Shown: positions 40,306-41,160 of the stretch, one piece after another
Layout of the letters: each line of letters begins with the position of its first letter
Position numbering within the stretch: the stretch's first letter is position 1
Assembly (NCBI RefSeq): GCF_055900595.2
Contig: NZ_CM148325.1
DNA: 64,000 nt
Direction: 5' to 3' (one strand)
The notes under the pieces: generated by a model
Databases searched by the model: none
Told to the model about the DNA's origin: nothing
The model's input: only the letters and a program-made list of their open reading frames with translations
Program-made: the position numbers and the translations under genes

Positions 40306-41160
40306 TTATTCCGGCTTCTGAAACAGAATGGTGTTAATCTCGACATCAGTGATTGCGCCAGCTGCTTCTGCTTTATGTAACCAGTATAGCGCTTTGTCTT
40401 TATCCACACCGTTCTCATCAATGCCCCAGGCGTAAATGCGGCCTAAGGATATTTGGGCATGAGGTAAATCTTGTGCGGCAGCTTTTTCAAACCAGTATTT
40501 AGCCTGTTTAATATCAGCGGGTACACCATCGCCCGTTAAAAAGAGCGTACCATAATTATACTGACCAATTTTGTCGCCTTTTTCTGCGGCAAACTTAAGA
40601 TATGTCGCAGCCTGGAGATAATTCTTTTCCTCGGCTGCGAGGAGCCCTAAATTAGCATGTGCAATGGGGTTTCCCTTTTGCGCCGCTTTAACGAGCCAGG
40701 ATTTTGCTTTATCGATATCATGGAACTTCTCTGGACCAAACTGATAGATATTGGCACAGTTTATCTGTGCCTGAAGATTTCCCTGTCTGGCTGATTTCTC
40801 ATACCAGTGAATGGCATTCTGGTAATCCGGCGGTGTGTCTTCATCTCCCTGATGATATAAAAGCCCGACATAAAATTGCGCAATGTCATCTCCCTGACTG
40901 GCTGCCAGATTAAACCAGTAAAATGCTTTATCGCGGTTTTTAACCCCCGTTACCCCTTCCTGGTAAACAATTCCCAATCCTTTTTGCGCAGATTTATCGC
41001 CGCCTTGTGCCTTTGCGATGATATTTTTCAGGTTTTCCTGTTTGTTTTTAGAATAACGTTGTTCAGCCTGGATAAGATCATCAAGCGAGGGTTCTTTGGC
41101 ACAATAACCTGTAAGAGGAAAATGCAAAATTAGTAGAGTAAATAAAATTAACTTTTTCAT
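40306..41160 (-). CDS. Exported Sel1-like repeat (SLR) protein
   Basis: Signal peptide MKKLILFTLLILHFPLTGYCA followed by repeated Sel1 units (KAFYWFNLAASQGDDIAQFYVGLLY, AIHWYEKSARQGNLQAQ, AKSWLVKAAQKGNPIAHANLG, AKYWFEKAAAQDLPHAQISLGRIY). Confidence 0.75.
   Translation of the reverse strand: MKKLILFTLLILHFPLTGYCAKEPSLDDLIQAEQRYSKNKQENLKNIIAKAQGGDKSAQKGLGIVYQEGVTGVKNRDKAFYWFNLAASQGDDIAQFYVGLLYHQGDEDTPPDYQNAIHWYEKSARQGNLQAQINCANIYQFGPEKFHDIDKAKSWLVKAAQKGNPIAHANLGLLAAEEKNYLQAATYLKFAAEKGDKIGQYNYGTLFLTGDGVPADIKQAKYWFEKAAAQDLPHAQISLGRIYAWGIDENGVDKDKALYWLHKAEAAGAITDVEINTILFQKPE

Follow-up and report, generated by a model that had tools for sequence, protein, structure and literature searches.

We found that the gene directly following mutS in the window (the whole 64,000-nucleotide stretch of DNA analysed here) encodes a Sel1-like repeat (SLR) protein which, in its predicted structure, is a six-repeat alpha-solenoid and a member of a well-known class of repeat proteins. 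This gene, called sel1 in what follows, is real, intact and expressed-looking, and is of low to moderate interest as a lineage marker rather than as a new kind of system. The best explanation, which we favour with moderate confidence, is that its product would be a Sec-exported, soluble periplasmic scaffold, encoded in an ancestral operon with the phosphatase gene pphB and binding through the A helices of repeats 3 to 6. Four other explanations, namely a host-interaction factor, an immunity protein against a type VI secretion system (T6SS) toxin, a decaying remnant and an Hcp-like enzyme, rank below the periplasmic scaffold.

The gene occupies positions 40306..41160 on the minus strand, where it was recognised from the ORF list, the Pfam Sel1 match and an identical RefSeq CDS; it runs from an ATG at 41160 to a TAA stop at 40306-40308 and specifies 284 aa. 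The same 855-nt CDS appears as WP_050486622.1 in the RefSeq PGAP annotation of the identical strain Z0117EC0005. Some gene callers give a 287-aa product from an alternative in-frame ATG upstream (41167..41169, minus strand), which adds the 3 residues MEC (MEC-MKK...). This upstream codon is probably not the true start of sel1, and the ATG at 41160 is preferred because RefSeq uses the 855-nt version and all orthologues begin at the MK/MR position. The mature protein would have about 263 aa, with a mass of 29.4 kDa and a pI of 5.9. Both sel1 and pphB are AT-rich (43-44% G+C), against 53-59% in the flanking mutS and decarboxylase genes. The protein is already public under generic names (A0A2K3TQ58_ECOLX, "Sel1 repeat family protein", on 336 contigs), and literature searches with the accession numbers, with Sel1 together with mutS and pphB, and with Sel1 together with cryptic clade found no paper on the gene.

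The original prediction, made from the letters of the sequence, had counted at least four canonical Sel1 units in this ORF, which proved conservative, and had proposed a SEL1-domain search as a check. This search gave a strong match to Pfam Sel1 (PF08238) in 5 stretches of the protein, at E=8.8e-43 and with 143.6 bits where the cut-off is 30.7. The AlphaFold2 model, built on ten orthologues (mean pLDDT 88.6, pTM 0.79), contains 15 helices, arranged after the disordered residues 1-20 as two N-terminal cap helices, six A/B pairs and a C-terminal cap helix. Taken together, the AlphaFold2 helices and the repeat parsing place six SLR helical hairpins at residues 56-269 (40354..40995, minus strand), with lengths, in order, of 36, 37, 36, 32, 36 and 37 aa, and the predicted motif A-x-x-W-x-x-K-A-A-x-Q-G can be read in their B helices. 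The protein thus combines the two marks of the SLR class, tandem Sel1 repeats above the Pfam gathering score and antiparallel A/B pairs in the model. Foldseek searches against the PDB agreed with this assignment, as the top matches were all SLR proteins (EsiB, 4bwr, with TM 0.74, followed by Oxalobacter Sel1 proteins, LceB, LpnE and HcpC), and so did phmmer against the PDB, where EsiB was again the best match (E=6.6e-54).

More specific assignments were tried and rejected. The NCBIfam equivalogs MerG (78 bits against a cut-off of 350), MotX (51 against 330), ExoR (30 against 450) and AlgK (34.5 against 700) all fell far short; these four are periplasmic Sel1/TPR-type binding proteins and in that respect resemble the Sel1 protein as proposed here, but no mer, flagellar T-ring, ExoS/ChvI or alginate genes are found near sel1. 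A role in anti-phage defence was also discarded, as the sole PADLOC match was a spurious 22.5-bit partial PtuA and pphB gave none.

The N-terminus has the appearance of a Sec signal peptide, predicted from hydropathy and sequence for codons 1-21 (41098..41160, minus strand). Behind MKK come a hydrophobic core of 13 residues, LILFTLLILHFPL (Kyte-Doolittle up to 2.69), and then TGYCA, and signal peptidase I would probably cut between Ala21 and KEP; the Tyr at the -3 residue is atypical for a cleavage site. Residues 1-20 have pLDDT below 50 in the model, and the n/h/c layout is retained in all orthologues despite sequence change. The signal peptide that had originally been predicted is therefore seen here as a signal-peptide-like N-terminus kept across orthologues, from which we infer export by the Sec route. 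A lipoprotein was rejected because Tyr precedes the Cys, at position -1 of LTGYC, where no lipobox ([LVI][ASTVI][GAS]C) is formed, and because three orthologues have no Cys here. After cleavage by signal peptidase I, the protein would remain soluble in the periplasm, a location suggested because it has no lipobox and because no dedicated secretion system is encoded nearby.

Turning to the surroundings of the gene, sel1 is oriented in the same direction as mutS and pphB (minus strand) and is the first gene after the mutS terminator. mutS itself lies upstream (41269..43830, minus strand, from its ORF and the annotation in the identical strain), with its stop at 41269 and 108 bp between it and the sel1 start, as expected from the earlier description of the two genes as adjoining. 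The terminator scan identified an intrinsic mutS terminator at 41232..41264 (minus strand) with a 14-bp stem, a 5-nt loop and a U/A-rich tail, whose fold (-23.1 kcal/mol, z=-4.3) was not equalled in stability by any of 200 shuffles. Inspection by eye revealed a perfect TATAAT at 41196..41201 (minus strand), 35 nt upstream of the sel1 ATG, which we regard as a candidate -10 element of sel1-pphB, together with a weak candidate -35, TTGGCT, at 41217-41222 (minus strand). The consensus promoter scan reported no minus-strand promoter for sel1-pphB, and the TATAAT went unreported because the spacer between the two elements is short and non-standard (15 nt).

On the other side, only 22 nt (40284..40305, minus strand) separate the sel1 stop from the ATG of pphB, and neither a terminator nor a promoter is predicted there. 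pphB (39627..40283, minus strand) encodes a PrpB-type Ser/Thr phosphatase of 218 aa (Pfam Metallophos; NCBIfam PRK09968), which scores 454 bits with the PRK09968 equivalog against a cut-off of 332. On sequence grounds, sel1 and pphB are probably co-transcribed as an operon, because the short gap has no predicted terminator, a strong mutS terminator stands upstream and a TATAAT precedes the ATG. A GC-rich hairpin between the convergent genes ecdD and pphB (39594..39623), called by the terminator scan on the plus strand, is likely a bidirectional terminator that closes this operon and would thus also act on the minus strand. Beyond it, the remainder of the mutS-rpoS variable segment (36764..39585) carries a MarR/SlyA-like regulator gene on the minus strand and the hydroxyarylic acid decarboxylase genes B, C and D on the plus strand. 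Any functional tie between the Sel1 protein and PphB is weak, because each gene occurs alone, sel1 in Citrobacter and pphB in most E. coli.

To place the gene among E. coli lineages, we surveyed 5426 complete genomes. The allele of the window (at least 99.5% identity) was present in 11 of them, always on the chromosome and annotated only as "tetratricopeptide repeat protein". Another 182 genomes, among them that of the enteroaggregative E. coli (EAEC) strain 042, have a second allele at precisely the position of the first; strain UMN026 also carries this second allele, under the UniProt label "Beta-lactamase" (B7N6W5_ECOLU). Both strains presumably belong to phylogroup D. The two alleles share about 68% DNA identity and 54% protein identity, and all 195 places with sel1 in E. 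coli are chromosomal. The gene is missing from about 96% of complete E. coli genomes, which confirms the accessory status that had been proposed for it. It had also been predicted to be absent from K-12 at this position, and the junction alignment agreed: K-12 and O157:H7 show no sel1 trace between mutS and pphB, which lie 105 bp apart with nothing between them.

The window belongs to the cryptic clade I lineage, with which its identity of about 95% to K-12 across 64 kb is compatible. Five of the 11 carriers of its allele, 100117, E200086, E400634, E500002 and E600003, have been typed as "Cryptic" or "Cryptic I", ST485 and OND:H45 (PMC13064198). Two clade-I-like genomes, 2013C-4282 and MFDS1022581, are without sel1 and have a K-12-type ygb cluster, and over the mutS-hyp flank they share 98.7-98.9% identity with the window.

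Beyond E. coli, only Citrobacter and Pseudocitrobacter yielded true orthologues (55-69% identity), and the next matches were generic Sel1 proteins with at most 38% identity. When one genome of each of 100,044 species was scanned with two invariant peptide patterns, which diverged orthologues could escape, C. werkmanii and a Pseudocitrobacter MAG were the only confirmed carriers. In every orthologous locus sel1 directly follows mutS on the same strand. The order in Pseudocitrobacter, mutS-sel1-pphB-ecdDCB-MarR, is collinear with the window, and Citrobacter has mutS-sel1 without pphB, of which C. enshiensis retains 48 codons as a remnant downstream of sel1 (E=1e-15). Transport of sel1 as mobile-element cargo was rejected, since tblastn found no orthologue in 72,556 plasmid and 50,697 phage records; two "plasmid" matches at 59% were misfiled 4.9-Mb chromosomes carrying allele 2, and the others were generic Sel1 proteins with at most 37% identity.

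These comparisons suggest that sel1-pphB is probably an ancestral operon of the mutS-rpoS region of Escherichia, Citrobacter and Pseudocitrobacter, and that sel1 was lost from most E. coli. Loss is preferred to a new insertion because the orthologues always follow mutS in Citrobacter and Pseudocitrobacter, an argument drawn from synteny and divergence. The K-12-type mutS-pphB spacer is collinear with the mutS-sel1 spacer of the window over the terminator, GTATAAT and ATG, and the mutS-pphB arrangement of K-12 is probably a derived deletion state of the older mutS-sel1-pphB. Such a deletion would have placed pphB behind the same promoter in most E. coli.

Vertical descent is not the whole history of the locus. 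Between the phylogroup D allele and Pseudocitrobacter, dS is 0.22 for sel1 and 0.93 for mutS, and ecdC shows a pattern like that of sel1 (dS 0.2-0.3). Between clade I and phylogroup D, synonymous sites of sel1 are saturated (pS 0.79), and the flanking mutS and ecdC have a dS of about 0.25-0.29. The alleles have therefore also moved by recombination, and we infer that they were exchanged by homologous recombination, for which this hot spot is known. The locus is a clear case of gene-scale allele replacement, with a phylogroup D allele near-identical to that of Pseudocitrobacter despite a distant mutS. The mutS-rpoS region has been described as a mosaic shaped by horizontal exchange, with patterns I-IV (PMC4209514), and the window carries its O157-type segment, with slyA/MarR, kpdBCD (the decarboxylase genes) and pphB. 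In contrast to the window, the published maps of MG1655, CFT073, E2348/69 and EDL933 show nothing between mutS and pphB, and the same o454-nlpD / mutS-rpoS typing paper does not mention a sel1-bearing variant (PMC4209514); sel1 adds a previously unmapped gene to this much-studied mosaic.

All informative pairs have a dN/dS of 0.08-0.19, and sel1 is under purifying selection. Conservation is concentrated in the A helices of the later repeats, where 10 of 13 positions are invariant in repeat 3, 8 of 13 in repeat 4 and 7 of 13 in each of repeats 5 and 6; the counts for repeats 1 and 2 are 3 of 13 and 2 of 13. The invariant A-helix residues include N134, C135, N137, Q140, H168, N170, Q200, N202 and Y203. 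The B helices are evenly and moderately conserved, as expected for a structural consensus. Several non-consensus stretches are fixed in both alleles, namely QAQ(I/V)NCANIYQFGP, PIAHANLG and GQYNYxTLF. In TPR-type solenoids the ligand groove is lined by A helices and, by this analogy, the conservation of the A helices of repeats 3 to 6 points to a conserved binding partner. As with other SLR/TPR proteins of bacteria, the Sel1 protein would most likely serve as a scaffold or adaptor without enzymatic activity, to whose surface of near-invariant helices a conserved protein or peptide of the envelope would bind. Co-transcription would tie its production to the conditions that call for PphB, possibly extracytoplasmic stress, and the two proteins need not touch. 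If identified, a periplasmic partner could illuminate the roles of PphB and of SLR proteins in enteric bacteria outside classical virulence.

The original prediction had named both host interaction and periplasmic adaptor functions as typical of bacterial SLR proteins, and of these the periplasmic adaptor fits better. If it were a host-interaction factor comparable to EsiB or LpnE, the protein would leave the cell and attach to a host molecule, for example secretory IgA, and so help the bacterium to colonise or to evade immunity. EsiB (c5321) of uropathogenic E. coli, which is reported to bind secretory IgA, is the best match both in sequence and in structure, one orthologue is automatically labelled "Secretory immunoglobulin A-binding protein EsiB", and the carriers of sel1 include pathogens (EAEC 042, UMN026 and eatA-positive clade I isolates from GEMS children). 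The two proteins share an SLR alpha-solenoid, an N-terminal export signal (in the Sel1 protein a predicted one) and their occurrence in Escherichia, and superpose with an rmsd of 2.5 Å over 242 columns, but no more than about 32% of the residues are identical, and it is the generic repeat consensus that accounts for this identity. EsiB of CFT073 (4BWR) is moreover larger, with 467-490 aa and about 11 repeats where the Sel1 protein has 284 aa and 6, and is encoded at another chromosomal locus, and orthology was rejected, as the alignment covers about half of EsiB (TMt 0.46) with four repeat-shifted stretches. LpnE (6DEH) and LceB (8SXQ) of Legionella and the Sel1 proteins of Oxalobacter formigenes (6OK3, 6ORK and 6UR7) are similar in fold and repeat length (Foldseek E 1e-11 to 1e-9) and have signal peptides like the one predicted here, but have 26-34% identity, belong to other genera and stand in unrelated contexts; the Legionella proteins act in host-cell infection. 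With no secretion system encoded nearby, a Sec signal alone would bring the Sel1 protein only as far as the periplasm, and the same-locus orthologues of Citrobacter and Pseudocitrobacter, with their invariant central surface, suggest a bacterial rather than a host-specific partner. A host-interaction role is therefore unlikely.

In another alternative, sel1 would encode an orphan periplasmic immunity protein against a T6SS-delivered toxin, retained in some lineages against competitors. This reading is favoured by the two deeply diverged alleles at one locus, by a sel1 dN 6-10 times that of mutS and by the patchy presence among lineages. The SLR-fold periplasmic immunity proteins PA5086, PA5087 and PA5088 of Pseudomonas are among the Foldseek matches (E about 1e-5 to 2e-4), and a study in Klebsiella reportedly describes a Sel1-type immunity protein. 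The likeness to the Pseudomonas proteins is however one of fold only (18% identity), and none of them is among the phmmer PDB matches at E<=0.001. No effector, VgrG or T6SS gene lies beside sel1 in the window or in most orthologous loci, and the T6SS genes of C. enshiensis are more than 5 kb off, on the other side of mutS. In addition, stable synteny over saturated dS and an invariant centre in both alleles would be unusual for arms-race immunity genes, and we give this possibility a low probability, below that of the host factor.

The gene is dispensable, because about 96% of complete E. coli genomes do without it and because split versions of 170 aa and 87 aa occur, on dozens of contigs, in some draft clade I assemblies. 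These same observations, the absence extending to the clade-I-like 2013C-4282 and MFDS1022581, could be read as a functionless remnant decaying towards a loss already completed in most E. coli, and in the allele 2 search 2 of 182 genomes matched less than 80% of the query. The reading frame is nevertheless full-length in all 11 complete genomes with the allele of the window and in 180 of the 182 with allele 2, and neither the low dN/dS of every informative comparison nor the strong, patterned conservation is what decay would leave, which makes a remnant quite improbable. Last, a penicillin-binding protein or weak beta-lactamase of the Hcp type, as the similarity-derived "Beta-lactamase" label on B7N6W5_ECOLU would have it, is hardly credible, since the SLR fold, similar size and, as predicted here, secreted or periplasmic location shared with HcpB/HcpC (1OUV; Foldseek E=4.6e-9 for HcpC) come with only 20% identity and with a single cysteine in the mature protein (C135, the only other being C20 of the signal peptide) instead of the paired disulfide cysteines of each Hcp repeat, and membership of the Helicobacter Hcp family was rejected on these grounds.

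Within the preferred reading of a periplasmic scaffold, a more specific and far more speculative role can be formulated. The ER-lumenal SLR protein SEL1L/Hrd3 binds ERAD substrates, and PphB (PrpB) was reportedly linked, in genetic work by Missiakas and Raina in 1997, to Cpx/HtrA signalling of extracytoplasmic misfolding. By analogy, sel1-pphB might be an ancestral two-compartment module for envelope quality, in which the SLR protein would recognise envelope proteins that are misfolded or unassembled and bind them in the manner of SEL1L/Hrd3, and would be co-produced with the cytoplasmic PphB. We regard this as a long shot. If it were true, the loss of sel1 from K-12 would help to explain the obscure physiological role of PphB, and the 54%-identical alleles with their invariant centre would represent a conserved client site on a fast-evolving scaffold. 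Whatever its function, sel1 gives a clean marker, by presence or absence and by allele, that distinguishes cryptic clade I, phylogroup D and the rest of E. coli.

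The window very probably derives from the genome of an Escherichia strain of cryptic clade I, since it shows only ~94.6-95.5% identity to K-12 over its whole length (1-64000), far below the level usual inside E. coli proper, and the strains whose sel1 and mutS copies are 100% identical to those of the window are typed as cryptic clade I, ST485.

Comparison with close relatives indicates that the variable segment of the mutS-rpoS region is not constant even between near relatives, with a breakpoint at the mutS terminator. In strains 2013C-4282 (locus L015) and MFDS1022581 (L016), the mutS-hyp flank retains 98.7-98.9% identity to the window, but the K-12-type ygbI-ygbN cluster is present and sel1 is absent. 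In strain Z0117EC0005 (L001), rpoS and the MarR-type regulator are separated by an IS200/IS605 tnpA gene (4817-5275), at a position corresponding to ~36644-36763 of the window, which lacks it and is otherwise identical to this strain there.

The entire decarboxylase-pphB-sel1 block appears to have been swapped between E. coli and Pseudocitrobacter, because in the divergence comparison between phylogroup D E. coli (L002 and L014) and Pseudocitrobacter corydidari (L006) the dS of sel1, pphB and the decarboxylase gene ecdC (0.2-0.35) is far below that of mutS (0.85-0.93).

Two shortened proteins of the window allele, P0122 (170 aa) and P0123 (87 aa), are found on 54 and 30 contigs, respectively, which suggests that one sublineage carries a frameshifted or split copy of sel1. 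The contigs bearing these truncated versions include one 5.18-Mb chromosome.

Elsewhere in the window, the type I-E cas genes cas3, cse1, cse2, cas7, cas5, cas6e and cas1 form a complete operon (16247-24476, plus strand) at the position where K-12 carries its own. At the nucleotide level the two operons have essentially nothing in common except around cas1, where identity is ~69%, and on this comparison the gene set is classed as divergent from that of K-12. Between hycI and ascB, a segment of ~740 bp without a K-12 counterpart contains an ORF of 257 aa (58377-59150, plus strand), whose N-terminus (MKIRTGMCAFLFCLVLPAQA...) resembles a signal peptide and which matches no Pfam family. Finally, nlpD contains an imperfect tandem repeat of 3.2 copies of a 24-nt unit (34644-34719), and the annotated length of this gene varies across the compared genomes.
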